DNA from: an uncultured Rhodospirillaceae bacterium
GTDB taxonomy: Bacteria > Pseudomonadota > Alphaproteobacteria > Rhodospirillales > UBA2165
DNA: 64,000 nucleotides
Assembly (NCBI GenBank): GCA_964643045.1
Contig: CAZXSC010000002.1
Coordinates: 25,806-89,805 of the forward strand
Reading direction: 5' to 3'
The notes under the pieces were generated by a model that worked only from the letters and a program-made list of their open reading frames with translations, did no database searches and was not told the origin of the DNA. This document shows, piece after piece, positions 20,700 to 60,958 of this stretch; position 1 is the stretch's first letter; every line of letters starts with the position of its first letter. The position numbers and the translations under genes were made by a program.

Positions 20700-20711
20700 A
20701 GGAGGGATACA

Positions 20712-36469: not shown

Positions 36470-38758
36470 GTGTTTCTGTTTAAATTTAATTTAGCATTAG
36501 GCATTTGTAAATTGCTCAACCCAATTACTCTGCTAAGGCTACAGTATGTTTCATTTATCGCCCTGATTACTTGCCTAACCTATTTTGAATCAAACATCTG
36601 GTCCACACGTTTACTATCAGCTCAAGAAATTAACGTCCGCAGTTCACTAACTCATTTGTTATTTAGAGCGATCAAATCCAATGACATAAATGGAGTGCGT
36701 ACAGCCATTGAAGCGGGAGCTGATCTTTCAAGAATTAATTTAGATGGTCACACCGCTATCGATGTTGCTATCCAGTACAATTATTTCGAGATAGCTGAAT
36801 ATCTAGTCTTCGCGCGTCGTGTTGAACAAAAATCAACGCTCAAACTAATTCTTCCCATCAGCTCTATACGACAGGATTCCGCCGAAGCTGCACCAACCGT
36901 AAATTTTTCTCATTCCAAAAAATTAGCCCGGGTAAAGCAAAAAAATATTCAAACACTGCCTGCTAAAACCATACGAAAAGAATTCGAAGCACCGCAACAA
37001 ACAACTTTAAAGCAAACAAATAAAGCTCAAAACAACTTTTCGATTACCAAGGAAACATTTGTTGAAAAAGCCAAGGGGGCAGTAATCCCACCACAGCCAA
37101 TCTTCATAATTGGGCGGGACGGCAAATTTTCTCCCGCCTCAGCCGAAGATATAGAACGTATTAAAAAAACTGCTAATCTGCATGCCAGTCGATCGTTGTC
37201 AGATATTGAACCCCGCAAACCGTTCTTTATCCCAAAACCACGAAATAAGCCAAGTTTACGTTTATCCGCAACAAATGAAATCCAACTCACCACCCCTCAC
37301 TCAAAGGGCAAACAAGCTAGTGAATCAACCCCCCCAACTTCAGACGCCCCAAAATTAGAGAAATTTGAAACCAAATCACCCAATACAGAAAATAAACCCA
37401 GTTTACAAAAAAAGGTGATAAATGCTCCCCAAAATGACTTTGCTCGGCCAACCCGGCGAATTTCCCCTCAGCTTTTAAAAAAATTGCGCGAAAGCCTCGA
37501 GAAATCAAAAAACCAGAAACAAATTAACAAAAAAATGCGTGAGAAAGATAAAATGATTAATTTGAAAAATTCCGACCTTTCAGCGCCTACGTTGTTACGA
37601 AAACGCCAGTCGACAGCATCGACTGGCCTGACAATTGATCAAAGTAAATTCATTAAAGTAGTTCCTAGAATAGTCAATCAGACAAAGCCAGAACTAAATA
37701 AAGTTAAAGAAAAAAGCACCTTCAGTAAGATGATGGGCCGAATTACAAGTTTATTTGGTATTACAAAAATGACAAAAACAAAAAAAAAGGAAAATGAAAT
37801 AGCAGAATCTAAAGTAGAAATTGTAACTAAAACTAAAAACACACAGCTACCACGAATTGAGCAAAAATACAAAAAATACCACAGACAGATCTCAACCAAT
37901 CCGTCAACAATCATTGCTAAAGATCGCCCTAGTATTACTACCAAAAAAAATACTGAACCTGATATTAAGCAATTTAATAGGCAGATGACGAAAATTCGAG
38001 ATTCGTCACTTAGGCATCCTCAACAAAATAAATCCGATTACCAAAATATAAAAAAGGAAAGAAGTAACATGCCTAAGCTCGATGCAAACAATTTTCTTCC
38101 TCAAAAAAAAGCTCTAACAATACCCCTTACCCGACTTCGGCAACCATTGAAAAACAAACTACTAGCCCTAGGAAATACAATTACAACAGGCCAAGCCAAA
38201 TTACCTCGAGGTATCGCGGAACCCGATCCCTGTATACGGAAACGGCGGGGAAAAATTTCATTCTGTATTGTCCCTGTTGATTGGCCACATACGTTCGAAA
38301 GCATTTTTGCTGTAAATACGTCTCTTTATCAAGGGACACGCGCAATTGCCCGTTATGACGGAGATAAAGCTAGCCACTTTCATGCCCTTTATAGATCAAA
38401 AAACCATGCAAAAATTATAGAGTTCTTTAAAAAACGCTATGGAAATCCCACCGATGTCTGGAAGCGGATAATAGCGCCTTTTGGCAAGCCCCGCAGGGCT
38501 AATCCCACCTTCGTTTGGCGCAGCCATGACCCTAAATTAAACAAGGTAACAATATTAGAAGTGCGTAAATTTGATGATACAAGAACGGTTTTCCCGGATA
38601 CAGAGCACGGCGCCATCCGCCTATACACTGCCGGAGGACCACCGGTCTTTCCCATCATTACGGCGCATGATATTATGTCTATTGATTGGGTCGCTCGGTC
38701 CGACCATCTGGATAGTGCTTCACCAACTCTAGCTAGAACAATCCGCGTTCTGCAATAA
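36470..38758 (+). CDS. Membrane-anchored protein with ankyrin repeats, a long Lys/Gln/Thr/Pro-rich low-complexity region, and an uncharacterised C-terminal domain
   Basis: GTG start with AGGAGTGA upstream. N-terminal hydrophobic segment (YVSFIALITCLTYF). Ankyrin-like LLFRAIKSNDINGVRTAIEAGADLSRINLDGHTAIDVAIQYNYFEIAEYLV. About 400 residues of basic low complexity, then a roughly 170-aa ordered-looking C-terminus. Confidence 0.6.
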   Translation: MFLFKFNLALGICKLLNPITLLRLQYVSFIALITCLTYFESNIWSTRLLSAQEINVRSSLTHLLFRAIKSNDINGVRTAIEAGADLSRINLDGHTAIDVAIQYNYFEIAEYLVFARRVEQKSTLKLILPISSIRQDSAEAAPTVNFSHSKKLARVKQKNIQTLPAKTIRKEFEAPQQTTLKQTNKAQNNFSITKETFVEKAKGAVIPPQPIFIIGRDGKFSPASAEDIERIKKTANLHASRSLSDIEPRKPFFIPKPRNKPSLRLSATNEIQLTTPHSKGKQASESTPPTSDAPKLEKFETKSPNTENKPSLQKKVINAPQNDFARPTRRISPQLLKKLRESLEKSKNQKQINKKMREKDKMINLKNSDLSAPTLLRKRQSTASTGLTIDQSKFIKVVPRIVNQTKPELNKVKEKSTFSKMMGRITSLFGITKMTKTKKKENEIAESKVEIVTKTKNTQLPRIEQKYKKYHRQISTNPSTIIAKDRPSITTKKNTEPDIKQFNRQMTKIRDSSLRHPQQNKSDYQNIKKERSNMPKLDANNFLPQKKALTIPLTRLRQPLKNKLLALGNTITTGQAKLPRGIAEPDPCIRKRRGKISFCIVPVDWPHTFESIFAVNTSLYQGTRAIARYDGDKASHFHALYRSKNHAKIIEFFKKRYGNPTDVWKRIIAPFGKPRRANPTFVWRSHDPKLNKVTILEVRKFDDTRTVFPDTEHGAIRLYTAGGPPVFPIITAHDIMSIDWVARSDHLDSASPTLARTIRVLQ

Positions 38759-38920
38759 AAGATATGCTTAACGGTTGGCAAACAGATCGAGTTTCAATTT
38801 CAAGCGAGGATGGGCTAGAGCCAAGTCGATCTAATCCGTCTCAAATATATGAAGTGGATCAATTATAGGTTTATAACATATAGTATTCCTCAACTGGCAC
38901 CAAGGGCGCAATAAACAGTT

Positions 38921-40189
38921 TTGCAAAGCAATTCAAATAATAATAGTAAAGTTTTCGTAGTCGGTGCCGGCCTAGCGGGCCTATCTACTGCCGTTAACTG
39001 CATACAAAACGGCCATGAAGTTCGAGTTTTCGAAGCGACGAATCACGCTGGTGGTCGATGCAGATCTTTTAAAGACACAGTGCTTAACCGAACCATTAAC
39101 AATGGCAATCACCTAATACTCAACGGTAATATCGGTGTTAAAAAGTATCTTACGGATATCAATGCACTAGATAACTTTACTACTTCGCAAGTAGCTTCCT
39201 TCGAGTTTCTAGACATAAAAACTAATGAAAGGTGGTCATTACAGCCTAGTTCAGGTGCCATACCATGGTGGATGATACAACCCAATAAGCGAATACCCAA
39301 CACCCGGCTCCGGGACTATTTTTCTTTATTAAAATTAATATTCGCCAGGCATGAAGCCTTAGCAGATCTAGTCGATCCTTCTCGCCCTATTTTTGACCGG
39401 TTATGGCAGCCCCTCAGCCAAGCAGTTTTAAATACAAATGCGCACGAGGGGTCTGCTGCATTAATCTGGAAAATGCTTTCCAATACCCTACTAAAAGGAT
39501 CCAATAGTAGCCTTCCCTTACTAACAAAAACTCATCTATCATCCGCATTGATTGAGCCTGCAATAACTTACTTAAAGGCAAATGGCTCCATTCCCGAATA
39601 TGGTATGAGATTACGGTCGTTGAAAATAAATGGTTCAAAAATTAGTGCTATTCAGTTCAATAATCACAATATAACTCTGAATAATGAAGACGCTATAATT
39701 CTAGCCCTGCCGCCAAACGAAATATCAGCTCTGCTGCCAAATATTACCGTACCGACCAAAACAAATGCCATTCTAAATGTACACTATAGGCTCGATGATA
39801 AGCCCCGGCTGCCAAATAACGCGCCGTTCATTGGAATTGTTGGCGGGACTGCACAATGGCTTTTCAAACAGGACGATATTTATTCAGTAACAATCAGCGA
39901 TGCTGGTATCTTAGCAAAAAAATCCAATCAAGAAATCGCGGGAATTGTTTGGCAAGACATTTCCCAAATTCTGGAGGTAGACAAAAGAAATCAACCCATA
40001 TCCCGCGTCATTCGTGAAATGAGAGCGACATTTGCTCAAACGCCCGAGGAAAATAAGAGAAGACCTGATGCGCATACAGTGTGGAAGAACCTATTCCTTG
40101 CTGGCGACTGGACCAATACAGGATTACCGGCAACAATTGAGAGCGCCGTTATTTCTGGTCAAAAAGCTGCAAAAATGCTTAGTAAATAA
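38921..40189 (+). CDS. FAD-dependent amine-oxidase/desaturase-fold oxidoreductase, HpnE (hydroxysqualene dehydroxylase)-like
   Basis: VFVVGAGLAGLSTA...FEATNHAGGRCRSF, and C-terminal LFLAGDWTNTGLPATIESAVISG. TTG start is the only candidate before the dinucleotide fold. Confidence 0.6.
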   Translation: MQSNSNNNSKVFVVGAGLAGLSTAVNCIQNGHEVRVFEATNHAGGRCRSFKDTVLNRTINNGNHLILNGNIGVKKYLTDINALDNFTTSQVASFEFLDIKTNERWSLQPSSGAIPWWMIQPNKRIPNTRLRDYFSLLKLIFARHEALADLVDPSRPIFDRLWQPLSQAVLNTNAHEGSAALIWKMLSNTLLKGSNSSLPLLTKTHLSSALIEPAITYLKANGSIPEYGMRLRSLKINGSKISAIQFNNHNITLNNEDAIILALPPNEISALLPNITVPTKTNAILNVHYRLDDKPRLPNNAPFIGIVGGTAQWLFKQDDIYSVTISDAGILAKKSNQEIAGIVWQDISQILEVDKRNQPISRVIREMRATFAQTPEENKRRPDAHTVWKNLFLAGDWTNTGLPATIESAVISGQKAAKMLSK

Positions 40190-41260: not shown

Positions 41261-41563
41261 ATGCTAGAAAAGCTTGTTAAAATTTTTCGCGCTAAATCAG
41301 CCTGGCATTTAGTAAGAATATTTATAGTTTTTAGCATAACTGGAAGCTTTTCAGTATATGTTTCAGGCCCAATTCTTGATTTATTACAGCTTGATGCGCT
41401 TATTACTTTCATCCCACTATATTGGGTCGCCAGACTTATAGTCATTACAATCGCATACCAATTGTCTCTGATAATCGTCGCTGCTGTATTTGGGGAGCTT
41501 ACTTACTTTCTAGTAATTCAGAAAAGACTTCTAAATCGATTTAAATTAAGAAAAAATAAATAG
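41261..41563 (+). CDS. Small membrane protein of unknown function
   Basis: 100 aa with two or three hydrophobic helices and a basic C-terminus (LLNRFKLRKNK). Confidence 0.45.
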   Translation: MLEKLVKIFRAKSAWHLVRIFIVFSITGSFSVYVSGPILDLLQLDALITFIPLYWVARLIVITIAYQLSLIIVAAVFGELTYFLVIQKRLLNRFKLRKNK

Positions 41564-41625: not shown

Positions 41626-42810
41626 ATGCGAGAAATTTTTATTCAATCTGACGATCAACGCGCAATATTAGAAACTGTAAAACGATTTGTTCGTGACGAA
41701 GTAACGCCGCGAGCCGCCGAACTCGATTCTCACTCTAATCCAGCCGATAGCTTTTCCTGGGAAATTGTAGAAAAGGCGCATGACGTAGGCATTCGCCAAA
41801 TGACGCTTAGTGAGGAATTTGGAGGTCTTGGGACCGATTCGCTCACCACTTCGATGGTCATTGAGGAACTTGGCAAAGGTGACCTAGGCGTCTCTGTAAT
41901 TTTCGCTCAAACACTAAAAATAGCGCAGATAATGCAATCGGCCTTAGACAATGAACAACGTGATAGGGTTCTACCAATCTTTGCGGGAGATCCTCGCGGT
42001 ATGCTGGCTATTGGTATCACCGAACCAGACAATGCATCAAATTATTTTCTACCCCACCCAACCCCCTTTCAGACTTCAGCAGAGAAGACGGATGGCGGTT
42101 GGATCGTTAACGGGATGAAACACTTTATTTCTAACGGTAACAGAGCAAGTTTTTATTTGCTATTTGTTCAAACTGAAAAAAAAATTGGGCTAGCGGAAGG
42201 TAGCACTTGTTTTGTGTTAGAAAAAGATCGGGATGGATTCACAATTGGTCGCATCCACGACAAGATGGGTGAAAGATTGGCAAATAATGCTGAATTGGTT
42301 TTCCAAGACTGTTTTATACCCGATGAGAATGTAGTAGGCGAAGTCGGCAAAGGCTTTAAAGTATTGGCTAACTTTTTTCCACAAAGTAATGCCTACGCAG
42401 GCGCAAGTGTATTAGGTGTCGCCGAAGCATGTTATGAAAAAGCTGTTGAGTGGGCAAAAATTCGCATTCAAGGCGGCAAGCCAATTATCGAACATGATGG
42501 TATTCGAGCCCAACTTGCCGAAATGCGCATGTTAATCGATGCCTCTCGCTCATATATTCATCGGGCATGCTATCTCGCGGACAACCAGGATGAAGGGTGG
42601 GATAAAACACTGGGAGCTTTGCCAAAAGCGATGGCCTCACAAGCCGCTTGGAAAATTGCGACTTGGTGCTTAGAAATCCACGGTGGACACGGTTACATGA
42701 AAGAATTTGGTGTTGAAAAGTTGATTAGAGACGCGGCTTGTTTCCTACATTCAGATGGAGTTAACAGAACTCTGTTTCTGAAGGCCGCTAATTTTATGTT
42801 TGAGGATTAA
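41626..42810 (+). CDS. Acyl-CoA dehydrogenase
   Basis: 394 aa. GGGAGA RBS, FISNG, and a C-terminal ...IHGGHGYMKEFGVEKLIRDA pattern. Confidence 0.9.
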   Translation: MREIFIQSDDQRAILETVKRFVRDEVTPRAAELDSHSNPADSFSWEIVEKAHDVGIRQMTLSEEFGGLGTDSLTTSMVIEELGKGDLGVSVIFAQTLKIAQIMQSALDNEQRDRVLPIFAGDPRGMLAIGITEPDNASNYFLPHPTPFQTSAEKTDGGWIVNGMKHFISNGNRASFYLLFVQTEKKIGLAEGSTCFVLEKDRDGFTIGRIHDKMGERLANNAELVFQDCFIPDENVVGEVGKGFKVLANFFPQSNAYAGASVLGVAEACYEKAVEWAKIRIQGGKPIIEHDGIRAQLAEMRMLIDASRSYIHRACYLADNQDEGWDKTLGALPKAMASQAAWKIATWCLEIHGGHGYMKEFGVEKLIRDAACFLHSDGVNRTLFLKAANFMFED

Positions 42811-42813
42811 GTT

Positions 42814-43854
42814 ATGAAAGCATTGGTACTTGAAGCGCCAAACACACCTTTTCAATTAAAAGAAATTCCTGATCCGATAGCTGGACCTGGGGAAGCGGTT
42901 GCAAAAGTATATGCCTGTGGCTCAGGCCTCACTATTCAGCATTTTAAAGCTGGCAGAACACCTGCAGTTTTTCCCCGAATCATCGGTCATGAGATTTGTG
43001 CTGAAATTACTGAGATTGGCTCAGGCGTTACCTCTCTTCAAATAGGCGATATCGTAACAACTTATTTCTATATGAACTGCGGCACTTGTAAATATTGCCT
43101 CTCAAATCTTGAGCCGCTTTGCCAAAACCTTGGTGGCTATGTAGGGAGAGAATGTGATGGTGGCTATGCAGAATTCATCAAGTTACCTTCACGCTGGTTT
43201 ATCAAACTGCCAGAACATCTCGATTGGAAGAATCACCCAGCGCACATTGGGGTCGCAATGGATGCATTAGCTACTCCTTATAAGGTATTGCGTCGCGCTC
43301 AAATAAAACCCGGGGAAACGGTCGCCGTATTTGGAGCGGGAGGAGGACTTGGTATCCATCAGATTATGTTGGCAAAGTGGGCCAAAGCAAGAGTTGTGGG
43401 TATCGATACCAAGAATTATAAATCTGATAGTATCAGAGATGCTGGTGCAGATGAATTTATTGATGCTTCCGAAGCGAATGTGGTTGAGGCTTTAATGGAT
43501 TTAACAAACGGCGAGGGAGTAGATGTCATTGTCGACTATATATCCGCAAAAACAACTCTTGAAATGGCAGCAACGGTACTTGGGAAACGTGGCCGTATGG
43601 TTACCCTGGGTGGTGCCGGGGAAAAATTTAATATTGATGCGAAGCATTTACTTGCCAACGAAATTGAAATACTCGGTAGTCGTTATGTCACACCACTCGA
43701 AATATTGGAGACCTATAATTTAATGGCGCGAGGAGAAATATGGCCCATTGTTACTGAGATCCGCCCACTCGAAGAAGCCGAGTGGGTACATGAGATGGTT
43801 GAAAATGGTGAGGTTATAGGCCGAGCGGCTCTCTTAGTTAATGACCCCAATTAA
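42814..43854 (+). CDS. Zinc-dependent alcohol dehydrogenase (MDR family)
   Basis: CGSGL...GHE catalytic zinc ligands, CGTCKYCLSNLEPLC structural zinc, and VFGAGGGLG Rossmann motif. Starts 3 nt after the acyl-CoA dehydrogenase stop. Confidence 0.88.
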   Translation: MKALVLEAPNTPFQLKEIPDPIAGPGEAVAKVYACGSGLTIQHFKAGRTPAVFPRIIGHEICAEITEIGSGVTSLQIGDIVTTYFYMNCGTCKYCLSNLEPLCQNLGGYVGRECDGGYAEFIKLPSRWFIKLPEHLDWKNHPAHIGVAMDALATPYKVLRRAQIKPGETVAVFGAGGGLGIHQIMLAKWAKARVVGIDTKNYKSDSIRDAGADEFIDASEANVVEALMDLTNGEGVDVIVDYISAKTTLEMAATVLGKRGRMVTLGGAGEKFNIDAKHLLANEIEILGSRYVTPLEILETYNLMARGEIWPIVTEIRPLEEAEWVHEMVENGEVIGRAALLVNDPN

Positions 43855-43855
43855 T

Positions 43856-44869
43856 CTATATTTCCAAGATAACCTTTAAACGCTCGTTACTTGGCTCCAT
43901 CAAAAGCTTAATTGCTTCAGACAATTTTATCAGGGGGAAAGTGTGGGTAATGAAAGGCCCAAGGTTAACCTTTCCCTCTTCAACCAATTTAATGCTTAGA
44001 GGGAAATCTGTTGGTAATGCTGCCCGAGCATTGATGATGGCAAGTTCTTTAAAATAAAATTCATAGAAAGGAAGCTCTCCACTTTGCTCAGCATAAATGC
44101 CAAAAGGTATTATTCGTCCACCAACCCGCGCAATATCTATGGCTTCAGCCAATACAGAAATATATCCAACAGCCTCAACTACTACATCTGCTCCTCTGCC
44201 ATCGGTTAGCGTTCTCACTAGCGATTTAGCAGCCTCACCATGTTCAATCGCCGCATCAGCACCCATGATCTCAGCTAGGGCACGTTTATGCGCATTGCGA
44301 GATACACCTATGACTGTCCTAGCACCAAAAGATTTTGCGACTTGAATTTGGAGTAATCCTGTAACACCCAGACCTAATACAACTACAACTTCACCGGGTT
44401 GAATTTTTGCTCGATTTTGAGCATGGAGAACCGTCGTCATAACTTGTATCAATGGGGCTACATTCAAATTAATATTTTTTCCGAGAGAAAAAATATTATT
44501 AGCTGGTACCAGAACATATTCAGCAAAAACACCATCGATATCACGTCCCAGTAATGCACCATTCTCGCATAAGTGAGTTTCATTATTATTGCAGAAAAAA
44601 CAATCATCACAGTGAAGAACCGGATCGACTATTACATGATCACCAGGTCCACTGCCGTCGTCTGCCTTTCCTTCTATTATTCGACCGACGGCCTCGTGCC
44701 CCATGATAACAGGCAAATTAGAGGGAATACCCCCATCAAAAATTTTGGTGTCAGTACCACAAATGCCCACGTGGCTTATTCGCACCAGAACCTGGCCCTC
44801 CTTGCAAATTGGTTTCGATATTTTCGTTATTGAAACATTGTTGGGTGTGGTTAACACAGCTGCTTTCAT
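43856..44869 (-). CDS. Zinc-dependent alcohol/polyol dehydrogenase (MDR family)
   Basis: GICGTD...GHEAVG, CDDCFFCNNNETHLC, VLGLGVTG. Confidence 0.88.
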   Translation of the reverse strand: MKAAVLTTPNNVSITKISKPICKEGQVLVRISHVGICGTDTKIFDGGIPSNLPVIMGHEAVGRIIEGKADDGSGPGDHVIVDPVLHCDDCFFCNNNETHLCENGALLGRDIDGVFAEYVLVPANNIFSLGKNINLNVAPLIQVMTTVLHAQNRAKIQPGEVVVVLGLGVTGLLQIQVAKSFGARTVIGVSRNAHKRALAEIMGADAAIEHGEAAKSLVRTLTDGRGADVVVEAVGYISVLAEAIDIARVGGRIIPFGIYAEQSGELPFYEFYFKELAIINARAALPTDFPLSIKLVEEGKVNLGPFITHTFPLIKLSEAIKLLMEPSNERLKVILEI

Positions 44870-44878
44870 TCTTTAAAC

Positions 44879-46039
44879 TCATAATAGTTCGTATAATTTC
44901 TCACTTAATTCTTGCATTCTATGTACCGACGTATGTTCATTCAAGAAGCGTCGACGACCTGCAGAAGCTATTCTAGCTCTATCCTTCGGAGAATTCAGAT
45001 ATCGGTCAATCAAATCCGGTAACTCTTCTAGCGATTTAAAATAGACGACCTCTTCATCAGGTTCAAACAAATCAACGGCATCCTCACGCCAGTCCGTCAA
45101 GACAAATGCTCCGCTGGCCGCAATTTGAAACACCCGGTGATGACAAGATCGAGGCCAAGGCGTTAAATTAAGATTAATAACAGATGAACAGAATAATGGC
45201 GATAGATCATGCCATTCTCGCCCCTCGTGTATGATTACATTACTTCGATCAGTCTTAGCAGTACCAATGCCGACAATGTGAATTTCCCGGCCCCCAATCG
45301 CATGGATAATTTGTTCACGAGCCAATGCTTTTTGCTCAAAATATAACGCATGAGAAAGTTTGCCAAACTCAACGGAACTCGGATCCCATTGGTCACCGAT
45401 CCAGTCAAAAACATCAACGTAATCATTGGTTTCGCGGCATCTTCCGACTATAAAATCAGCTGCGAATTTCATCTTTCTATTCCAGCCTTTGCGCCACTTT
45501 AAACGTTCGGCCTGATACGAATTTAATGTCGCTGCAAAACTGATGTCACAACTAAAGTCTGATATCGGTGAGACAGGTTTAAAAATATCGTTATCAATGT
45601 GCCAAGGAGGTAAATAAAAAACATTAACCCATCCAAGTTCCTTTAACTGTTCAATTACTCGCGTATCAGCAACGAACATTGCCCTATGAAGGGGGGTATT
45701 AAGTTCTCTCAAAACAAACTGATGTTTTACGGTATTGTCGGTCCACATACTAACATACGGAATTCTTTCTTCTTCAAGAAAGAACGGCATGGGAAAGGAT
45801 CGAAGTAGATTTTCCAGTGACGAGCCCCACAATACGGCTACATCAAATTTTATTTTCCGAACAAGCCTACGGTAATCATCCAAACTCAACAAACGATCAA
45901 CATATATAACTTCGTGGCCTAAATCGGCTAATGCCTGAAGCGCAGGGGCCCTCTGGGAATCCCACCGACCACGCAAGATTGAAAGTATACGAAAAGGTCG
46001 GCGAAGATTATTGCCAGTTCTATTTTTAATTATTCGCAT
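44879..46039 (-). CDS. CgeB-like / group-1-type glycosyltransferase (DUF3880-like N-terminus)
   Basis: 386 aa. The C-terminal EEVVYFKSLEELPDLIDRYLNSPKDRARIASAGRRRFLNEHTSVHRMQEL is typical of CgeB-family GT-B enzymes. Confidence 0.55.
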   Translation of the reverse strand: MRIIKNRTGNNLRRPFRILSILRGRWDSQRAPALQALADLGHEVIYVDRLLSLDDYRRLVRKIKFDVAVLWGSSLENLLRSFPMPFFLEEERIPYVSMWTDNTVKHQFVLRELNTPLHRAMFVADTRVIEQLKELGWVNVFYLPPWHIDNDIFKPVSPISDFSCDISFAATLNSYQAERLKWRKGWNRKMKFAADFIVGRCRETNDYVDVFDWIGDQWDPSSVEFGKLSHALYFEQKALAREQIIHAIGGREIHIVGIGTAKTDRSNVIIHEGREWHDLSPLFCSSVINLNLTPWPRSCHHRVFQIAASGAFVLTDWREDAVDLFEPDEEVVYFKSLEELPDLIDRYLNSPKDRARIASAGRRRFLNEHTSVHRMQELSEKLYELL

Positions 46040-46042
46040 AAC

Positions 46043-47083
46043 TTATTGACCTGATCGCCAATCCGTCACATTTGTTGGATTAACTTCTGCAATTAATTCA
46101 GGATGAGTATAAACCTTACCAAGATCTAGATAATTTTCATGGAGTACCCATAAACGAAAATTTTTATCACTAATAAAATGTTGAAGATGCTGCGATATTC
46201 CTTGGGTTAAGCCATCTTGAACTATTTGAACAAATTCCTTTGGAGTCCGGGCAGGATTTGGAAAGTAGTGCAATGCCATCTCATGAAATTGAGCTTCGCT
46301 AGGTAAAATGTATGGCTGCCCCGATTTGCGGAGCAGAGCGAACGATCTTACGTAACCCGATGTAATAAATTTAGATCTAATGGAGTTTAAAGTTAGTTTA
46401 TTCTTAGAAATGTGGTGTACGACCGAAATTTCAGGATGGTAAATTACTTTTTTTCCCAGATCCACTATAGAGCGACCAACATAGACCTCTCCATCACCAT
46501 GAAATTTCAACAAGTGAGCAGGCATAGCACAGGGATGAAAGCCGCCAATCTCATCCAAACACGTTTTGCGTATTGTAAAATTAGTACCCCACACAAAATT
46601 TCCGGGAATTTGTTTTATCGTTTTACCACAATCCAATAGACCAAAAGCTGGCAAAGTTTGTGCGCCGGGCTCCCCAATTTTCATGTAATCCACCCAATCA
46701 GGCGGGGGCTCTTCATAACACAACCGGATTGGCCCTGTTGCCAAACCCACATTTTGATCTCTATAAGCATCCAAAACTCCAGAAAGCCAACCGCTATCGG
46801 GACACACATCATCGTCAATAAAGCAGCACACTTCTCCCTGTGAAATTCCGAGGGCTCTATGCCACCCCACTAATTGACCCGGACGCGCATCGAGAAGATA
46901 GGTAAAGTTTTGAAACTTGGCGGCATACTTATCACAAATTTTGCTAGTGTGATCCGTGGAACCGTTATCTGCTATAATCACTTCAAATAGATTCTTAGGT
47001 AAATCCTGCAGTGATAACGCTTGAAGAGAACGGGCTAAACTTTCAGCACGATTCACTGTCGTTATTACTACCGTCATCTCCAT
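46043..47083 (-). CDS. Family 2 glycosyltransferase with a C-terminal extension (paralog of 3801-4859)
   Basis: VVITTVNR...ADNGSTD...FIDDDV. Shares FVWG(S/T)NF, GGFHP, GDG(D/E)V.VGR and C-terminal FISD..FR.WVL..NYLD with the 3801-4859 product. Confidence 0.85.
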   Translation of the reverse strand: MEMTVVITTVNRAESLARSLQALSLQDLPKNLFEVIIADNGSTDHTSKICDKYAAKFQNFTYLLDARPGQLVGWHRALGISQGEVCCFIDDDVCPDSGWLSGVLDAYRDQNVGLATGPIRLCYEEPPPDWVDYMKIGEPGAQTLPAFGLLDCGKTIKQIPGNFVWGTNFTIRKTCLDEIGGFHPCAMPAHLLKFHGDGEVYVGRSIVDLGKKVIYHPEISVVHHISKNKLTLNSIRSKFITSGYVRSFALLRKSGQPYILPSEAQFHEMALHYFPNPARTPKEFVQIVQDGLTQGISQHLQHFISDKNFRLWVLHENYLDLGKVYTHPELIAEVNPTNVTDWRSGQ

Positions 47084-47090
47084 CGTCTAA

Positions 47091-49181
47091 TTATACCAAT
47101 CTTTTCTTAATTTTTTCATATTCTGCGGCAACCCAATCTTCTAACAGATATTGATTTTCATCCAACGACTGAAGTGACCTTTCGTCAAACGGTAAAAAAT
47201 TGCCCGATGGGGTTCGGACACGCATATAATATAAAACGTAGTTATTGGCTAGGGAGGAAGCGCCCTCTTTATTTTTGACCGTTAATTCAGCCGTAACACC
47301 AAAAGACAAAAGATCACAAAGATTTGGAGGGTACAACTCAATTGCCTTGTAAAATACGGCAAGAATTTCCTGTGCCTCTGCTTTTAAATGGGACAGTACT
47401 TTTGTTAATAATTTGTAGGCCGCGACATTTATTTCAGACAGCATGATTGCCTTCTTAAGAAAATCACTCGCAGCATCCAACTGTTCATTCTCAAAAGCGT
47501 AAAGTCCGAGATAAGTCAGAGCACAACTTTGGATCATTAGACGTGCTCGCCTCGGTTCATCTAAGACTGCTTTAAAAAAATCTCCATATGAAAACATCTC
47601 GGCAAGATGTTGCATTCGATGGCTTAATACAGAATCTTTAGGATTAAATTGGAGTGTTTCATTTGAACGAGATAGTTCGCCAAATAAATTCAAAGCTTCT
47701 CGTTTTGCTCCAAATGTCCACAAAACTCTTGCCGCATTGAACTTTAAAACCATATTTTTTGGGAATTTTTGTTGGCCGGTACGGAAAATTTCTACAGCAA
47801 AACTACCTAACCTGTCATTCCCTTCGCCGACGGTGGCGGCAAAAAATGCTGCACTTGCGGCAAAATTGTAATGGGCTACGGTCTTATTCGCAGCAGCCAA
47901 ATTTTGCTTAGCAACTGACGTGTATAATCGTACAGCTTTATTGACCGGATAACCCCTTAATTCCGCTGGTATTGGCAAATTCTTAGCCGGCCGCTGATTA
48001 GGCAAATTGGCCATGGCAGATTGAAAGAGACAGAATTTGATAAACCTTTGTTCCCTAAACGGCTTGGGCCAAAAAATTTCACGAAAGGTGTCTTTATCAG
48101 GATTGAAATTCATATTTATTTTATATTTCCTCAAGGAATCTAAAACCGTTCTTTCAAGAGGCTTGGAGCAAACACTCATAAACCCTGCTTGTTCTCCCCC
48201 AAGCAAACCACCAGTGGTAAGATTTTCAGGAGAAAAAACAAGAGCCCCCTGTCTCATTGCATCAATTGCTCGGGTCTGAATTCCTCCCGGGTAACGCCAA
48301 AAAATAGGCACGAACCGACTGTCACGCATCATTGCGACAAAATTATCTTCTGGCAAATAACCATCATATATTCTTATGTTTAACTGTGAATCATCAAGCA
48401 TAACGAAGCGATACAAAAATTGAGCTTTATCCCTCATATAAGGTACGAAAGCTCTGCCAGTATAGCCGATATCATAGTTTTTATTTGCAGAAAATTCAGG
48501 AAACTCAGAGCTCCTAACATAAAATTCGTGTCCCGGAAATGACGCAACTCGAGCAGTATAATGCTTGATTAATTCGCAATGTTCTCCTGCACTATTGGTA
48601 ATCAAGATTGTTGCGCGGGAAAGGTCAGAATAGCGGGTCGCATAGAAAAAATCATGGTCACCAACCCAAAAGGCGACTGGACACTCCAGATCAAAAATAT
48701 TGTTGGGTAGTCCAACACCGTGGACCCCAAGGCTAATAACTAAATCTCTACTATGATTTAATTCAACAATCTTGTTGTTTAAATTTTCTGGCCCGACCAA
48801 TGTATGTGACAATTTAATATTTTCAAAATTTTCAATATTAGCGATACTTATGGGAGAATAAATTAGAACCTCCGCCCCATGTTTGATGAATTTTTTTAAT
48901 TTCTCAGCCGTCTCTCCCGCAACTGCATGTAGAACTTCAAGGGCTCGGGTCGTCTCTTGTATGCACCAGTATCCATATGCCTGAATCAATCGAGAAGATT
49001 TGGCCAAATTTTTACATTCCGCTAATTCGGATAACCCGGAGTTAATTGCACCGCACATAATCTTTGCACAAGCCTTACCCTGAGATTCTGAAGCCTTATG
49101 AAACGCATAAGCATAATTTCCAGCTTCTAACAATTCATCTGCAGAATTATTTGTTTGGTCCAGATAGGGGAAGTTTAACAT
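47091..49181 (-). CDS. Large hypothetical protein: CgeB-like glycosyltransferase-type region plus helical-repeat (TPR-like) C-terminal half
   Basis: The ORF-track start (49352) overlaps the Mth938-like gene in another frame. The ATG at 49181 (MLNFPYLDQ...) lies 8 nt after that gene's stop. No sharp catalytic motif was recognised. Confidence 0.45.
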   Translation of the reverse strand: MLNFPYLDQTNNSADELLEAGNYAYAFHKASESQGKACAKIMCGAINSGLSELAECKNLAKSSRLIQAYGYWCIQETTRALEVLHAVAGETAEKLKKFIKHGAEVLIYSPISIANIENFENIKLSHTLVGPENLNNKIVELNHSRDLVISLGVHGVGLPNNIFDLECPVAFWVGDHDFFYATRYSDLSRATILITNSAGEHCELIKHYTARVASFPGHEFYVRSSEFPEFSANKNYDIGYTGRAFVPYMRDKAQFLYRFVMLDDSQLNIRIYDGYLPEDNFVAMMRDSRFVPIFWRYPGGIQTRAIDAMRQGALVFSPENLTTGGLLGGEQAGFMSVCSKPLERTVLDSLRKYKINMNFNPDKDTFREIFWPKPFREQRFIKFCLFQSAMANLPNQRPAKNLPIPAELRGYPVNKAVRLYTSVAKQNLAAANKTVAHYNFAASAAFFAATVGEGNDRLGSFAVEIFRTGQQKFPKNMVLKFNAARVLWTFGAKREALNLFGELSRSNETLQFNPKDSVLSHRMQHLAEMFSYGDFFKAVLDEPRRARLMIQSCALTYLGLYAFENEQLDAASDFLKKAIMLSEINVAAYKLLTKVLSHLKAEAQEILAVFYKAIELYPPNLCDLLSFGVTAELTVKNKEGASSLANNYVLYYMRVRTPSGNFLPFDERSLQSLDENQYLLEDWVAAEYEKIKKRLV

Positions 49182-49189
49182 CAGAAAAC

Positions 49190-49573
49190 TTACTCCACTG
49201 GAACAAGAGCAGCCGCTACTCGTCTGTCCTCGGAGGTCAACACATTGAACGTTCTGCATGCTGCTCCTGTATCCATCATCTCGACAACGATATCGGAACG
49301 TTTTAATTCGGCCCGCAAATTTTCCTGAATAAACACAGTATTTCTCCCACAACCAACTAATAGTAACTCTATGGCTGAGTCAGCTCGAATTACCGAGGCA
49401 AAAGAGTCAGCACTTATAGAATCAATATCCTTGATTGGCCAACTTAAGGTCTCGTTCTGAAAAACCAGTATAGCGCCATCATAGATTTTATCGCTTATCT
49501 TAAAACGATTATTGCCATAGCTTTGGATAATTTGACGACCGGCGGGGATATCTGGAGTAATATTAAGCGAAAT
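49190..49573 (-). CDS. Mth938-like (DUF498 / NDUFAF3-like) domain protein; non-canonical start, probably ATT
   Basis: Absent from the ORF track. Hand translation: (I)SLNITPDIPAGRQIIQSYGNNRFKISDKIYDGAILVFQNETLSWP...IELLLVGCGRNTVFIQENLRAELKRSDIVVEMMDTGAACRTFNVLTSEDRRVAAALVPVE*. It occupies the position immediately downstream of secF that this family holds in Alphaproteobacteria. Confidence 0.75.
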   Translation of the reverse strand: MSLNITPDIPAGRQIIQSYGNNRFKISDKIYDGAILVFQNETLSWPIKDIDSISADSFASVIRADSAIELLLVGCGRNTVFIQENLRAELKRSDIVVEMMDTGAACRTFNVLTSEDRRVAAALVPVE

Positions 49574-49608
49574 AACCTTATCCTCTCCTTGTCCCGTTTT
49601 ATGTCAAC

Positions 49609-50553
49609 TTAAGACGAGCCCTCTTTAATGGTAACCGTATTTTGGCTATTTCTTGAAGTTCCCCTATCAATATTAAGATACATCAATAACGGTACTGCCA
49701 AGCATATTGATGAATAAGTACCGACAAGCACACCCCATATCATTGCAAAACTGAACCCACGGATTACCTCGCCTCCCAGAATATATAACGACAATAATGC
49801 CAATAATGTCGTGGCAGAAGTCATGACAGTACGAGATAACGTCTCGTTAACTGAATTATTCAGTAATTCTAGTAGTGGAAGGGATTTGTACTTTCTCAAA
49901 TTCTCCCGCACCCGATCAAATACAACTACGGTATCGTTGATGGAATAACCCGCAATAGTGAGTATTGCCGCAACTGTCGATAAATTAAACTCTATTCCCA
50001 TGAGTGCAAATATACCAATTGTCGTTATTACATCGTGGCAAAGAGCTAAAATTGCCCCTATCCCAAACTGCCATTCAAATCGAAACCAAATATAAAGAAG
50101 AATACCAATTATGGCTAATATGACCGCTAATACACCATCCCGGAACAATTCTTCACTCACTTTTGGTCCCACAAATTCAGTGCGTCGGTATTTGGTAATT
50201 GGACTAAGTTTTCGTTTAACTTTATCGATTGCAGCTTGCTGGGCCTTTTCACCACCAGCTTGCTTTTGAATCCGAATAAGAATGTCCGTTGGAGCTCCAA
50301 ATTCTTGAAGTGACACTTCACCGAGATTTAAATTCGCAAGCTGCTGACGCATTTCACCTAATTTACCGGCCCTGTCGACCCGAACTTCAATTAAGATACC
50401 ACCTTGAAAATCAATCCCGTAATTAAGACCACGAGCAAAAAACATTGCCACTGAGATCAGAATTAACACTAAAGAAATTCCAAAAAAACTCTTACGTTGC
50501 CCAACAAAATTTAGATTTGGCTTAACAGGAATAAGATTTATTGGTTTCACCAT
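49609..50553 (-). CDS. secF: Protein translocase subunit SecF
   Basis: MVKPINLIPVKPNLNFVG..., GIDFQGG, and a C-terminal six-TM RND-like domain. The ATG at 50553 has GGGAGG upstream, 7 nt after the secD stop. Confidence 0.94.
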   Translation of the reverse strand: MVKPINLIPVKPNLNFVGQRKSFFGISLVLILISVAMFFARGLNYGIDFQGGILIEVRVDRAGKLGEMRQQLANLNLGEVSLQEFGAPTDILIRIQKQAGGEKAQQAAIDKVKRKLSPITKYRRTEFVGPKVSEELFRDGVLAVILAIIGILLYIWFRFEWQFGIGAILALCHDVITTIGIFALMGIEFNLSTVAAILTIAGYSINDTVVVFDRVRENLRKYKSLPLLELLNNSVNETLSRTVMTSATTLLALLSLYILGGEVIRGFSFAMIWGVLVGTYSSICLAVPLLMYLNIDRGTSRNSQNTVTIKEGSS

Positions 50554-50560
50554 GCCTCCC

Positions 50561-52138
50561 TTAAATTGGAACTTCCGTAATACGCCGATTTCTAATCCAA
50601 GCAACCACCATCAATCGAGTTAACATGATAGCTGTGAACATCGAAGTCACGATTCCTATCGACAAAGTTACGGCAAAACCGCGAACTGGACCCGATCCAA
50701 AATAAAATAAAATTAAAGCAGCGATAAGAGTAGTTAAATTAGCATCAACGATTGTTGTTATCGCACGACTGTATCCCGCGTCAATCGCCGAGATGGGGGT
50801 CCTGCCTGCTCTCACCTCCTCCCGGATTCTCTCAAATACTAACACATTAGCATCGACTGCCATGCCGATAGTAAGAACTATTCCGGCTATACCAGGCAGA
50901 GTCAATGTTGCCTGCAATAATGATAAACTGCCAAGTATCAATACCATATTTACCAACAGCGCAATATCAGCAAAAAACCCAAATACGCCGTAAGTCACAA
51001 TCATGAATAGGATAACCAAAATAAGGCCAACAATAGACGCAATTTTTCCGGCCGCAATACTATCGGCACCCAATCCCGGACCAACAGAACGTTCTTCCAA
51101 AATTGTAAGAGGGGCTGGCAAAGCCCCAGCCCGCAAAAGGAGCGCGAGATCCTGAGCGCTGCTTATAGTAAAATTTCCACTAATCTGCCCACTGCCACCC
51201 AAAATAGGCTCGCGGATAACTGGTGCAGAAATTACTTTACCATCTAAAACTATTGCAAATGGACGGTTGACGTTACGCTTTGTCACATCACCGAATTTCT
51301 TGCCACCTAGGGTATCAAAACGAAAGTTCACAATAGGCTCTCCGGTACGACTATCAAAAGAAGGCTGCGAATCAATAAGCCGGTCGCCTCCGACAGCAAC
51401 TCGTTTTTTTACTAAATAACGCCGTGGCTGACCTTGCGAATTTTGATCTACAGAAGTCAAAAGCATACTTCCCGGTGGGACACGCCCCTGCGTAGCTTCC
51501 ACCATAGAACCTTTGTGATCCAACAAATGAAAACTCATTTTAGCCGTTTTTCCCAGTAGCCTTTTGAGTCGCTCTGGATTATCAAGACCCGGCACCTGAA
51601 CTAAAATGCGATCTTGTCCTTGACGCTGAATAGTCGGTTCACGCGTTCCGGTTTCATCAATTCGCCGACGAACAATTTCGATTGACTGACTTACCGCAGA
51701 GCTTTTTATGGCCCGAAGCGCTTGTTCGCTAAAATTAACTGTTACCCGATTATCCTCGGCGACAATTTCTAGATTCTTATCAGCACCTACGGCAAGTTTC
51801 TGTGCTTTTTCTAATTTATCCCTATCACGCACCAAAAAAGTAGCAGCATCATTGCGGGCTCTTAGTCCCGTGTAGCGTATTTTATTTTTTCTCAAAACAA
51901 CCCTAATTGCATCAACTATACTTTCAAGGCGTTCACGAACCACGGAGGATACTTTAACTTCAAGCAACAAATGGGATCCTCCTTGAAGATCAAGTCCAAG
52001 ATTAACCTGTTGATGCGGCAGCCAATCCGGCAGGCGCTCTGTGGTCTCTTTCTTCAATGCGTTAGGAGCAGCAATTACTAACCCAATCAAGACAATACCC
52101 AATACGATTGCAGTCTTCCATTTAGAAAAATAAACCAT
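50561..52138 (-). CDS. secD: Protein translocase subunit SecD
   Basis: 525 aa. LGLDLQGGSHLLLEV, a periplasmic P1 domain, and C-terminal TM bundle LPGIAGIVLTIGMAVDANVLVFERIREE. Confidence 0.95.
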   Translation of the reverse strand: MVYFSKWKTAIVLGIVLIGLVIAAPNALKKETTERLPDWLPHQQVNLGLDLQGGSHLLLEVKVSSVVRERLESIVDAIRVVLRKNKIRYTGLRARNDAATFLVRDRDKLEKAQKLAVGADKNLEIVAEDNRVTVNFSEQALRAIKSSAVSQSIEIVRRRIDETGTREPTIQRQGQDRILVQVPGLDNPERLKRLLGKTAKMSFHLLDHKGSMVEATQGRVPPGSMLLTSVDQNSQGQPRRYLVKKRVAVGGDRLIDSQPSFDSRTGEPIVNFRFDTLGGKKFGDVTKRNVNRPFAIVLDGKVISAPVIREPILGGSGQISGNFTISSAQDLALLLRAGALPAPLTILEERSVGPGLGADSIAAGKIASIVGLILVILFMIVTYGVFGFFADIALLVNMVLILGSLSLLQATLTLPGIAGIVLTIGMAVDANVLVFERIREEVRAGRTPISAIDAGYSRAITTIVDANLTTLIAALILFYFGSGPVRGFAVTLSIGIVTSMFTAIMLTRLMVVAWIRNRRITEVPI

Positions 52139-52177: not shown

Positions 52178-52570
52178 TTATTTTTTACCGGTTCCTAGGA
52201 ATTTACCAAGAATCCCGCCGCCATCATTATTCGATGTATTTACCGCATCACCTGAATTCGGCTGAGATTTTGGTTGGACACTAGCAATTAGTGTGCGCTG
52301 GACTCTGATTTTAATACCTTCGGCAATTTCAACAGCAAGTTCTTCATCATTGACTACCTTAGTAACGGTACCAATAATACCACCTCCTGTTACAACTTTA
52401 TCACCCCGAACTATAGCAGCTAACATATTTCGATGATTCTTTGCGCGTTTTTGTTGTGGCCGAATTAAAAGGAAATAAAAAACAACAAAAATTAAGACTA
52501 AGGGTAATAACGTAGCAAAGCCTCCATCGGCCCCACCTGCGCCCTGTGCAAAAGCTGGCGAAATGATCAT
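52178..52570 (-). CDS. yajC: Preprotein translocase subunit YajC
   Basis: LLPLVLIFVVFYFLLIRPQQKRAKNHRNML...GDKVVTGGGIIGTV. AGGGAGA RBS before the ATG at 52570. Confidence 0.9.
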   Translation of the reverse strand: MIISPAFAQGAGGADGGFATLLPLVLIFVVFYFLLIRPQQKRAKNHRNMLAAIVRGDKVVTGGGIIGTVTKVVNDEELAVEIAEGIKIRVQRTLIASVQPKSQPNSGDAVNTSNNDGGGILGKFLGTGKK

Positions 52571-52920
52571 TTGTATCTCCCTAAACAATAATAATTCGCG
52601 GAATATACCCCGCTAATCACTCAATGCAATCTCTATCTCAATCTATGGCGTTCCAAAAATTGATAATAATTTCGGTTGATTTGCGTTTTTCCTTTTTTAT
52701 TTACATATCGAATACGTGTTTGTTTAGATGAATTCCACAAACTATACGATCTCGTTAAACCGCTATACTAATATAAGGTATTGAGTCCAATAATTTATTT
52801 CAGGAATTATTTTAAATTATGGTATATAAAATTAAACACTCTATGAATTTATTGACGAAAATAATACTTATGGTAGGTTCCCGCCGTTTATAGTTATAGA
52901 ATACGTTGGAGATAATCAAA

Positions 52921-59791: not shown

Positions 59792-60958
59792 TTAACGCGG
59801 AAATAAATCTTTCATTCGGGATTGGATCTGAGGTGAAATAAAGTCTTCTATGGGCCCCAAAAAAGATTTTAAATGAACCATCGTTAGTGGATCAGTCATA
59901 GGTGCTTTCTGAACAATCGCATCCGCAGCTTCATAGGCCGCCTGTACAAAATGCACAGCATTTTGGCTTACTTCTTCCCAATTCCCTACCGTGTTAGCCA
60001 AAAAATAGACCGGCTGACTTAAGAATAAACGGTGCCGAATATTCGTATTATTTACAATAAAATGCGCCATCCTTTCTACAGATAAAGGTCCTGTCTTCGC
60101 GCTGTTAGCACGGTATCCTGTTGGAGAGACTTTACAAAGCAATATTTCATCCGAGTCACGAGATAAATGGATGGCTCGATCATCCGCAACAGCCCGAAAA
60201 ACGTAATCATAGTCCATTGTCGAAAAATACTTAATTCCACTTTCAGCCGTCAACAAATCTGGCTCAATCATCAAAGGATGTGGAAACAAACATTGCGTTA
60301 TTACTCCTGTCCTAACCTTTTCTTTTCCCGAAAAATTATGCACCCACCAATTAACTTGGGACGGATACACGGTAGAACGTTTCGTGCCCATAAAATATGC
60401 TTCAAATATGGGATGCATTTCCTCGAGACACAAACGTACTAAATTTCGAGCCTCCAAATAAAAAGACAAGTTCCTATGCAACAAAGTAGTGGCGCTTTCT
60501 GCGTTTAATCGCAATAGTGGGGCCATCACAGCACGCTTGCCCTGCCGCCGAAGTTTATGCATTTGAGCCAAGGTGCCGTCAGCGACTATAAAATCTGAGT
60601 CAAGAAGTATAGCCGCCGAATCTTCGAGGCGAGATAACATATGGCTTGATGTAATACGCTGAACATTATGCTTAACCGTAGCAAAATCAGAATTCTCAAT
60701 AGCTTCCTCTAAATTGCCATTACCGTACATTATCTGGTCAAAAAAATAAAAATGGACTTCTGCAAATTCTGACAGCTCTTCCACACCAGCGCTAAAATAC
60801 TTGTGTGACACTCTGTCTGTATAGATGTGATAATGGATTTTAGCGTCATTGGATACCGTAGGCAGATTACCCTCAGCCAACTGAGACCTTAGTGATAAGT
60901 CAATAAACTTATCAACAAAGCTCTTTCCCCAAACTGTAACAAAAACATCATAACGCAC
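59792..60958 (-). CDS. Hypothetical protein, possibly GT-A-like (DxD-containing) glycosyltransferase
   Basis: 388 aa with a GTG start. N-terminal YDVFVTVWGKSFVDKFIDLSLRSQLAEGNLP and LLDSDFIVADG (DxD-like). The assignment is weak. Confidence 0.4.
   Translation of the reverse strand: MRYDVFVTVWGKSFVDKFIDLSLRSQLAEGNLPTVSNDAKIHYHIYTDRVSHKYFSAGVEELSEFAEVHFYFFDQIMYGNGNLEEAIENSDFATVKHNVQRITSSHMLSRLEDSAAILLDSDFIVADGTLAQMHKLRRQGKRAVMAPLLRLNAESATTLLHRNLSFYLEARNLVRLCLEEMHPIFEAYFMGTKRSTVYPSQVNWWVHNFSGKEKVRTGVITQCLFPHPLMIEPDLLTAESGIKYFSTMDYDYVFRAVADDRAIHLSRDSDEILLCKVSPTGYRANSAKTGPLSVERMAHFIVNNTNIRHRLFLSQPVYFLANTVGNWEEVSQNAVHFVQAAYEAADAIVQKAPMTDPLTMVHLKSFLGPIEDFISPQIQSRMKDLFPR

Follow-up and report, generated by a model that had tools for sequence, protein, structure and literature searches.

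What do the closest described systems suggest about a cluster of soluble glycosyltransferases? The flagellin glycosyltransferase FlmG of Caulobacter crescentus binds flagellins via tetratricopeptide repeats (TPRs) (PMC7591256), and CgeB of Bacillus subtilis has been reported to glycosylate the protein CgeA at Thr112, with weak activity (PMC13577073). The family of CgeB, PF13524, also occurs in Acinetobacter baumannii, whose outer-core loci for lipooligosaccharide (LOS) combine predicted glycosyltransferases of PF13524 (with DUF3880) and of glycosyltransferase family 2 (GT2), without Wzx or Wzy (PMC4172580). Here, we analyse three adjacent glycosyltransferase genes, the trio, in a stretch of 64,000 nucleotides (nt) from an uncultured Rhodospirillaceae bacterium (assembly GCA_964643045.1, contig CAZXSC010000002.1, positions 25,806 to 89,805 of the forward strand); this whole stretch is the window, in whose numbering all positions are given. 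The genes encode a 696-aa protein with a GT-B region followed by a TPR-like half, a 346-aa GT2 enzyme and a 386-aa CgeB-like enzyme, and a first-pass annotation had described them as an island wedged next to the secDF-Mth938 genes. We find instead that a clade of uncultured marine Rhodospirillales has inherited the trio vertically, as a clade-specific module that closes the yajC-secD-secF-mth938 run at its 3′ end.

A scan of one genome per species yielded 23 loci with a homolog of the 696-aa protein, from marine Rhodospirillales. Homologs are few (42 clusters, all about 700 aa), and their source names, where given, are marine Rhodospirillales or Rhodospirillaceae metagenome genomes, with one labelled Gammaproteobacteria; a tblastn search of 72,556 plasmids with the 696-aa protein as query gave no match. 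Mth938 lies directly upstream of the homolog in 23/23 of the species-level genomes, GT2 comes next in all 19 with enough contig, the full trio is present in 16/16, and the order yajC-secD-secF-Mth938-696aa-GT2-CgeB is kept wherever the contig reaches far enough. The three genes are thus syntenic core genes of the lineage. In these loci, the 696-aa protein is 31-63% identical, GT2 45-66% and the CgeB-like protein 56-78%, compared with 54-88% for SecD, and the trio is co-conserved under a constraint comparable to that on its housekeeping neighbours. Three outgroups, chosen through their Mth938 proteins (L033, L034 and L035, including Thalassospiraceae and Minwuia genomes), have yajC-secD-secF-mth938 and then no glycosyltransferases; in the one that is neither Thalassospiraceae nor Minwuia, a 1.1-Mb contig, mth938 is followed by the same Urate_ox_N gene as stands behind the block in the clade. 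Since the outgroups lack the trio and synteny within the clade is complete, we regard it as an old, clade-specific addition at the operon end rather than a recent insertion.

That the block is a recent, horizontally acquired island wedged between core genes, as the first-pass annotation framed it, is therefore hardly tenable. The outgroups do indicate that it was gained at some point, and on this deep timescale the term insertion holds. An island might have been expected to stand out in GC content or codon usage; however, GC across the block is flat (0.40-0.43), and GC, GC at third codon positions (GC3) and codon-usage score of the trio genes fall within ±1.1 standard deviations (sd) of the 52 open reading frames (ORFs) listed in the window, that is, at z-scores of at most 1.1 in absolute value. 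The block borders carry no tRNA, integrase, transposase or meaningful flanking repeat, with Rfam returning one distant tRNA only, and order and orientation are identical in the 23 species-level genomes despite divergence of the proteins to 31-63% identity.

How does the trio relate to the genes around it? A minus-strand run comprising yajC, secD, secF, mth938, the 696-aa gene, GT2, the CgeB-like gene and a dehydrogenase gene extends from 52588 down to 43856 (Table 1). Gaps inside the trio are 7 nt (696-aa gene to GT2) and 3 nt (GT2 to the 386-aa gene), the Mth938 stop codon lies 8 nt before the 696-aa start, and 9 nt separate the 386-aa gene from the 337-aa dehydrogenase gene. As the spacing is equally tight upstream and downstream, the trio is the middle of a longer co-directional run, and the block boundaries drawn in the first-pass annotation are arbitrary. 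The gene calls themselves are sound: the ORFs bear out the three co-directional genes and the gaps of 3 and 7 nt between them. For the 696-aa gene, the mechanically called ORF extends further, to a TTG at 49352, with the extra stretch overlapping the Mth938 gene in another frame; the ATG at 49181 is the start that matches the aligned N-termini of 21 homologs. The spacing of 3-9 nt suggests co-transcription with the sec-mth938 run, possibly with translational coupling.

Table 1. Features of the sec-mth938-glycosyltransferase run and protein regions encoded in it (window positions).
Feature	Coordinates	Strand	Evidence
yajC, first gene of the run	52178..52588	-	ORF; PF02699 YajC at orthologous position in L001, L003, L005; tblastn identity to relatives 60-85%
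secD	50561..52138	-	ORF; SecD Pfam domains in orthologs; identity 54-88% over 23 loci
secF	49609..50553	-	Mechanical ORF reaches 50604 and would overlap secD; identity 50-86%
Mth938/DUF498 gene, 127 aa, apparent ATT start	49190..49573	-	PF04430 at 109.5 bits
696-aa gene	47091-49181	-	ATG at 49181
696-aa protein, residues 1-101: N-terminal helical region	48879..49181	-	AlphaFold2 helices at 14-101, pLDDT >90
696-aa protein, residues 102-372: divergent GT-B domain, PF13524 type	48066..48878	-	Foldseek, HMMER profile
696-aa protein, residues 373-696: TPR-like helical-repeat half	47094..48065	-	Profile vs PDB sequences, Foldseek
GT2 gene, 346 aa	46043-47083	-	PF00535
GT2, residues 1-225: GT-A catalytic domain	46409..47083	-	PF00535, PF13641
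GT2, residues 226-346: family-specific C-terminal extension	46046..46408	-	Conserved, without family model
CgeB-like gene, 386 aa	44879-46039	-	PF13524
Zn-dependent medium-chain dehydrogenase, 337 aa, facultative fourth gene	43856..44869	-	ADH_N + ADH_zinc_N domains

The gene directly upstream of the trio has an unusual start. Within the Mth938 gene, no in-frame ATG, GTG or TTG occurs before 49336, and an ATT stands at the exact start position of relatives, 7 nt after the Shine-Dalgarno sequence AAGGAGAGG (start region 49571-49590, minus strand). Closest relatives use non-canonical codons as well (ATT in L007 and L008, ATC in L009, CTG in L013 and L029), and more distant ones have ATG, TTG or GTG. 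It may be that a start of low efficiency has been conserved here, directly ahead of the glycosyltransferase genes.

The 696-aa protein is the least conventional member of the trio. Pfam and NCBIfam give nothing above cutoff, a Pfam glycosyltransferase match is absent at E <= 0.1, and Pfam TPR_19 reaches 18.3 bits, below its cutoff of 25. An AlphaFold2 model built with 22 homologs is confident (predicted local distance difference test, pLDDT, 88.4; predicted template modelling score, pTM, 0.89). In it, residues 14-101 are helical, two Rossmann-like halves span 103-214 and 236-340, and helical repeats run from 375 to the C-terminus. The family profile searched against PDB sequences matched consensus TPR proteins, PEX5 and the TPR region of OGT at E 2e-10 to 1e-5 (profile positions 575-680), and Foldseek with the whole model returned TPR proteins at probability 1.0. 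As these TPR matches swamped the whole-protein search, a separate model of residues 95-400 was built (pLDDT 81). Against the PDB, it gave 94 matches at E <= 1e-3, the best 50 of which are all GT-B enzymes, among them BshA (3mbo, E 4e-7), tetrahydrobiopterin glucosyltransferase, Gtf3, GtfA/B, SenB, TarM, SdgB and PimA. With E-values from 4e-7 to 1e-4, template modelling (TM) scores of 0.45-0.56 and identities of 8-16%, these matches mirror the generic GT-B fold and hence carry little information on the acceptor.

To which family does this GT-B domain belong? A HMMER profile of the central domain, searched against 1.84 billion cluster representatives, matches 349 of them. PF13524 covers the same region in 26 of 41 sampled distant relatives (best E 8.8e-11), many of which also carry TPR repeats, and in P0220 and P0210 it lies above the Pfam cutoff across the region aligned to the 696-aa domain. 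A direct comparison of the 696-aa and 386-aa families by hhalign failed (probability 0.4%, or 5% after adding 130 distant relatives), so that the PF13524 assignment rests on these intermediates. The consensus of the distant relatives shares the FTG...DK motif and reads R..EAL..G at the position of residues R304-D307 of the 696-aa protein; in most clade members the acidic residue there is Asp (D307), with Glu in its place in P0028 and P0030. Among the invariant residues of the domain are D175, D177, R183, T241, G242, K252, R296, T303 and R304, and the domain looks catalytically competent. The homolog alignment further shows invariant residues in the N-terminal region (G21, Y23, C43, G44, W72 and C73). 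Judged from sequence intermediates and predicted fold, the protein is a CgeB-like (PF13524-type) GT-B region joined to a TPR half, and it represents a sizeable, uncurated branch of the PF13524 superfamily. The first-pass annotation had proposed just this combination: its GT-B/TPR architecture was recovered by structure prediction, Foldseek and profile searches, while its CgeB-like label stands by way of intermediates and not by a direct match.

The two remaining enzymes are, by their Pfam matches, members of known families, as had been proposed. GT2 matches PF00535 at 84.7 bits (cutoff 23.3) and PF13641 at 34.3 bits (cutoff 27), resembles solved GT2 enzymes in the PDB generically, including chondroitin synthase at 9e-14, and has D39, N40, G41, S42 and D44 (DNGS..D) as well as D90-D91-D92 invariant in 17 orthologs. 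Its C-terminal extension, residues 226-346, is without Pfam or NCBIfam coverage, yet contains many invariant residues. In the same 17 orthologs, the extension ends in an invariant D-W-R-x-G tail (D341-W342-R343-G345; 46046-46080, minus strand) behind a variable, gapped linker. This tail looks like a short linear motif at the C-terminus, and the TPR half of the 696-aa protein is its candidate binding partner. The 386-aa protein matches PF13524 at 101.6 bits (cutoff 25) over residues 242-378, with a weak match to DUF3880 (PF12996) at its N-terminus (13.4 bits vs cutoff 25.2); among the 85 homologs listed, the best 82 are at least 55% identical and the last three reach only E 2.8e-9 to 2e-7. Its family profile found nothing among PDB sequences. 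No hydrophobic or membrane segment was detected in any of the three proteins (maximum KD19 <= 1.17), and all are predicted to be soluble.

What might such a set of enzymes make? In agreement with the first-pass annotation, Pfam searches and synteny revealed no priming transferase, flippase, polymerase, ABC or OPX exporter, or sugar-nucleotide gene over about 30.7-61 kb of the window (~13 kb either side of the block), and export, polymerase, priming and sugar-nucleotide genes were likewise not found within ±10 kb in relatives. The locus thus lacks the defining features of a Wzx/Wzy- or ABC-dependent capsule or O-antigen locus and is not one. We tentatively favour the view that the trio builds a short, defined glycan on one specific acceptor, most likely a protein, rather than a polymer or capsule. 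The first-pass annotation had leaned toward a defined acceptor as well, and this remains plausible given the TPR domain, the soluble trio and the reported action of CgeB on CgeA (PMC13577073). Support comes from the confident AlphaFold2 model, the GT-B central domain, the TPR half, the solubility of the three proteins, the exporter-free context and the synteny.

In such a scheme, the three enzymes would work one after another on the cytoplasmic side, with nucleotide sugars as donors. Their product would be a glycan of few residues on one acceptor, with no need for a flippase, polymerase or exporter of its own. Specificity would be conferred by the TPR half, which may hold the acceptor, most likely a protein, as in O-glycosylation of the FlmG, OGT or CgeB/CgeA type. 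Instead or in addition, this half may hold partner enzymes; since C-terminal peptides are often clamped by TPR domains, the DWRxG tail of GT2 is a candidate docking peptide.

Distant homologs of the 696-aa protein offer further architectures. In P0220 (2004 aa; locus at L037, 1860-16015), a PF13524-type domain is joined to TPR repeats, a GT4 domain and two domains of the GT2 type. Genes beside it encode a nucleotidyltransferase, an APS kinase, a methyltransferase, a TPR protein of 755 aa and a sulfotransferase-TPR protein; the locus looks like an exporter-less one for a sulfated, methylated glycan. P0398 (983 aa; L036, 10001-12952, on the same 2.5-Mb contig as L001/L019) is a paralog in which the same type of GT-B domain is fused to a TylF/Methyltransf_24 methyltransferase; it is surrounded by catabolic genes and not by a glycan locus. 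The two architectures lend loose support to the idea that such modules cooperate, usually without exporters. Overall, the contexts of distant homologs (P0137, P0140, P0144, P0145, P0398 and P0220) are heterogeneous, including HMGL-like genes, nucleotidyltransferase-kinase genes, an E1 dehydrogenase with a B12 radical SAM enzyme, and a sulfotransferase with APS kinase, and none of them names an acceptor.

Besides the failed hhalign comparison, several points weigh against a protein acceptor or, more broadly, against the reading just outlined. No flagellin, pilin, adhesin or nonulosonic-acid gene lies near the trio (within ±10 kb for flagellin and nonulosonic-acid genes), and no acceptor is pinpointed by the genes or contexts examined. 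TPR domains can serve complex assembly rather than acceptor binding. The Zn dehydrogenase that often accompanies the trio gives a hint of a small molecule or polyol as substrate, and peripheral glycosyltransferases of the lipopolysaccharide (LPS)/LOS pathway are devoid of membrane segments as well. Lastly, a scan for promoters and terminators gave counts no higher than in shuffled controls, which leaves spacing as the basis for co-transcription.

The main rival to a protein acceptor is extension of the LOS core, an alternative that the first-pass annotation overlooked. Glycosyltransferases that extend the LOS core need no dedicated flippase or polymerase. Under this rival, the trio would extend the lipid A-core (LOS outer core) or another lipid-linked glycan at the inner membrane face, with export by MsbA/Lpt or by unlinked genes; with export generic or unlinked, a dedicated flippase or polymerase nearby would not be expected. 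We consider this possible, if rather doubtful. The predicted pairing of PF13524 with GT2 in the LOS outer-core loci of Acinetobacter (PMC4172580) speaks for it and counts against a protein acceptor, as does the lack of membrane segments, typical of peripheral LPS glycosyltransferases, and the core-like conservation of the trio in the clade would fit an envelope function. The partial NCBIfam matches of GT2 are to polysaccharide or lipid-linked glycosyltransferases (HpsE, EpsD, PglI and HpnI), but all are far below their cutoffs. Moreover, no lipid A, Kdo, waa, kdt or lpx gene was found within ±10 kb, in the window or in relatives, and a TPR superhelix of 320 residues would be unusual on a core glycosyltransferase.

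The gene downstream of the trio raises a second alternative, namely that the glycosyltransferases and the Zn dehydrogenase together produce a soluble glycoside or oligosaccharide (a compatible solute, a cyclitol or polyol glycoside, or a thiol-cofactor-like compound), with no macromolecule being decorated. The 337-aa dehydrogenase gene follows the trio co-directionally at a gap of 9-22 nt in 11/16 assessable species genomes, and the best NCBIfam matches of its product (Tdh, YdjJ-like and IolM-like, all under their cutoffs) are to polyol, inosose and threonine dehydrogenases. The organisms are marine, and small acceptors are the substrates of BshA, tetrahydrobiopterin glucosyltransferase and SenB, top structural neighbours of the GT-B domain. 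Still, we judge a soluble product improbable: these neighbours reflect a generic fold (TM 0.45-0.56, identity 8-16%), the dehydrogenase is missing from 5/16 genomes that keep the trio, and three glycosyltransferases plus a TPR domain would be excessive for known compatible-solute pathways.

The dehydrogenase belongs to a cassette of an acyl-CoA dehydrogenase and two Zn dehydrogenases (41626-44869), and this cassette, rather than the glycosyltransferases, is the variable element of the neighbourhood. It is complete in closer relatives, some distant ones have the 337-aa dehydrogenase alone, and the latter is absent in L001, L005, L015, L016, L018 and L027.

Could the position behind the sec genes itself be functional? 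The trio might then be tied to Sec, glycosylating a Sec-exported or membrane-inserted protein in the cytoplasm, or a component of YajC-SecDF-Mth938. The TPR half would capture the pre-protein before export, and the accessory Sec pathway, with its coupling to glycosylation, would have a counterpart in Gram-negative bacteria. From mth938 through the glycosyltransferases, the gaps stay at 3-9 nt even where protein identity is down to ~31-36%, which is compatible with such a coupling without demonstrating it. With conserved adjacency as its foundation, we regard a Sec-coupled role as highly improbable.

The wider surroundings were annotated by Pfam and synteny. Upstream of the run lie genes for a DUF815 ATPase, a LysM-M23 peptidase, PCMT, SurE, SerS, TatC and TatB; downstream of the trio follow two Zn dehydrogenases, an acyl-CoA dehydrogenase, a DUF6787 membrane protein, a Urate_ox_N protein, an amine oxidase, an ankyrin-repeat protein, TrmFO and UvrA. 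The DUF6787 gene (100 aa; 41261-41563, plus strand) is convergent to the glycosyltransferase run, kept beside it in relatives and absent from outgroup L033. A weak Flg_bbr_C label on this gene was considered as a flagellar link and rejected, its product being the DUF6787 membrane protein. The 762-aa ankyrin-repeat protein (36470-38758, plus strand) has a hydrophobic N-terminus, ankyrin repeats at 52-113, a K/S/T/P/Q-rich region of ~450 residues and, at its C-terminus, a conserved domain; relatives have it in synteny, at lengths of 705 to 812 aa, and in L005 it is split. Between the amine oxidase and ankyrin-repeat genes, L003, L007, L009, L010 and L011 carry a SQS_PSY gene (~288 aa). In the window, the corresponding interval (38758-38921, 162 nt) is devoid of SQS_PSY, and tblastn found no copy in the 64 kb. 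A role in hopanoid or carotenoid glycosylation, considered in light of the amine oxidase and SQS_PSY genes nearby and of weak HpnB, HpnI and CruG matches, was dropped, as these matches are far below cutoff and SQS_PSY is absent from the window.

Two further observations concern the window at large. Its compositional outlier is not the trio but the region 18700-22271 (plus strand), where genes for two 4Fe-4S (Fer4-type) proteins and an AMP-binding ligase have a GC of 0.48-0.50 and a GC3 of 0.45-0.50, 2 to 3 sd above the other window genes. Between BolA and ScpB, a 388-aa ORF (59792-60958, minus strand) has no Pfam match at E <= 1e-4.

What does this mean for the locus? Above all, our finding corrects the island label: the trio is a stable, clade-defining extension of the sec-mth938 operon and could act as a synteny marker for the clade. 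It is probably a small, uncharacterised glycosyltransferase module for a defined acceptor, with an unusually stable position at the operon end. If the acceptor is indeed a protein, the 696-aa protein would stand for an uncharacterised glycosyltransferase family (GT-B, then TPR) that spans at least 349 clusters at 50% identity without a curated model. The trio would then provide abundant uncultured marine Rhodospirillales with a compact cytoplasmic glycosylation system of three enzymes, helpful for understanding their cell-surface chemistry and of use as a part for glyco-engineering.

Set against the described systems, the trio shares features with each of them. FlmG is likewise a soluble alphaproteobacterial protein with TPR and GT-B parts, in which the TPR repeats select the protein acceptor (PMC7591256). 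Compared by description, however, FlmG (596 aa) has its TPRs N-terminally and its glycosyltransferase domain C-terminally, whereas the 696-aa protein has GT-B first and TPR second; flagellin and pseudaminic-acid genes, moreover, were not found near the trio. Because of this mismatch in domain order, the trio cannot be filed as FlmG-type. OGT, too, shows the reverse of the order seen here. The GtfA/GtfB-Gtf3 enzymes, which modify serine-rich repeat adhesins, Sec substrates of the Gram-positive accessory Sec pathway, in the cytoplasm, resemble the trio in comprising several soluble GT-B/GT-A enzymes with sec-adjacent genes, and Gtf3 (3qkw) and GtfA/B (5e9t) are among the best structural matches of the 696-aa domain, at the level of a generic GT-B fold and 10-11% identity. 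In contrast to these, the trio adjoins the housekeeping yajC-secDF genes, not secA2/secY2, and a serine-rich repeat protein was not found.

The LOS outer-core loci of Acinetobacter baumannii are alike in being small sets of GT2 and PF13524 (+DUF3880) enzymes without Wzx, Wzy or exporters (PMC4172580). They lie between ilvE and aspS, vary between strains and are without a TPR-fused enzyme, whereas the trio is invariant in the clade and sits behind the sec operon. CgeB, finally, is a soluble enzyme for which sugar transfer from a UDP-sugar to the protein CgeA has been reported (PMC13577073). In contrast to CgeB, the trio has no spore context, its 696-aa domain is not directly detected by PF13524, and the N-terminal helical region and 320-residue TPR half of the 696-aa protein have no counterpart in the 317 aa of CgeB. 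The 386-aa protein, however, is a clear member of the CgeB family PF13524 (Glyco_trans_1_2, clan GT-B), and the 696-aa domain, via intermediates and its GT-B fold, falls into the same superfamily.

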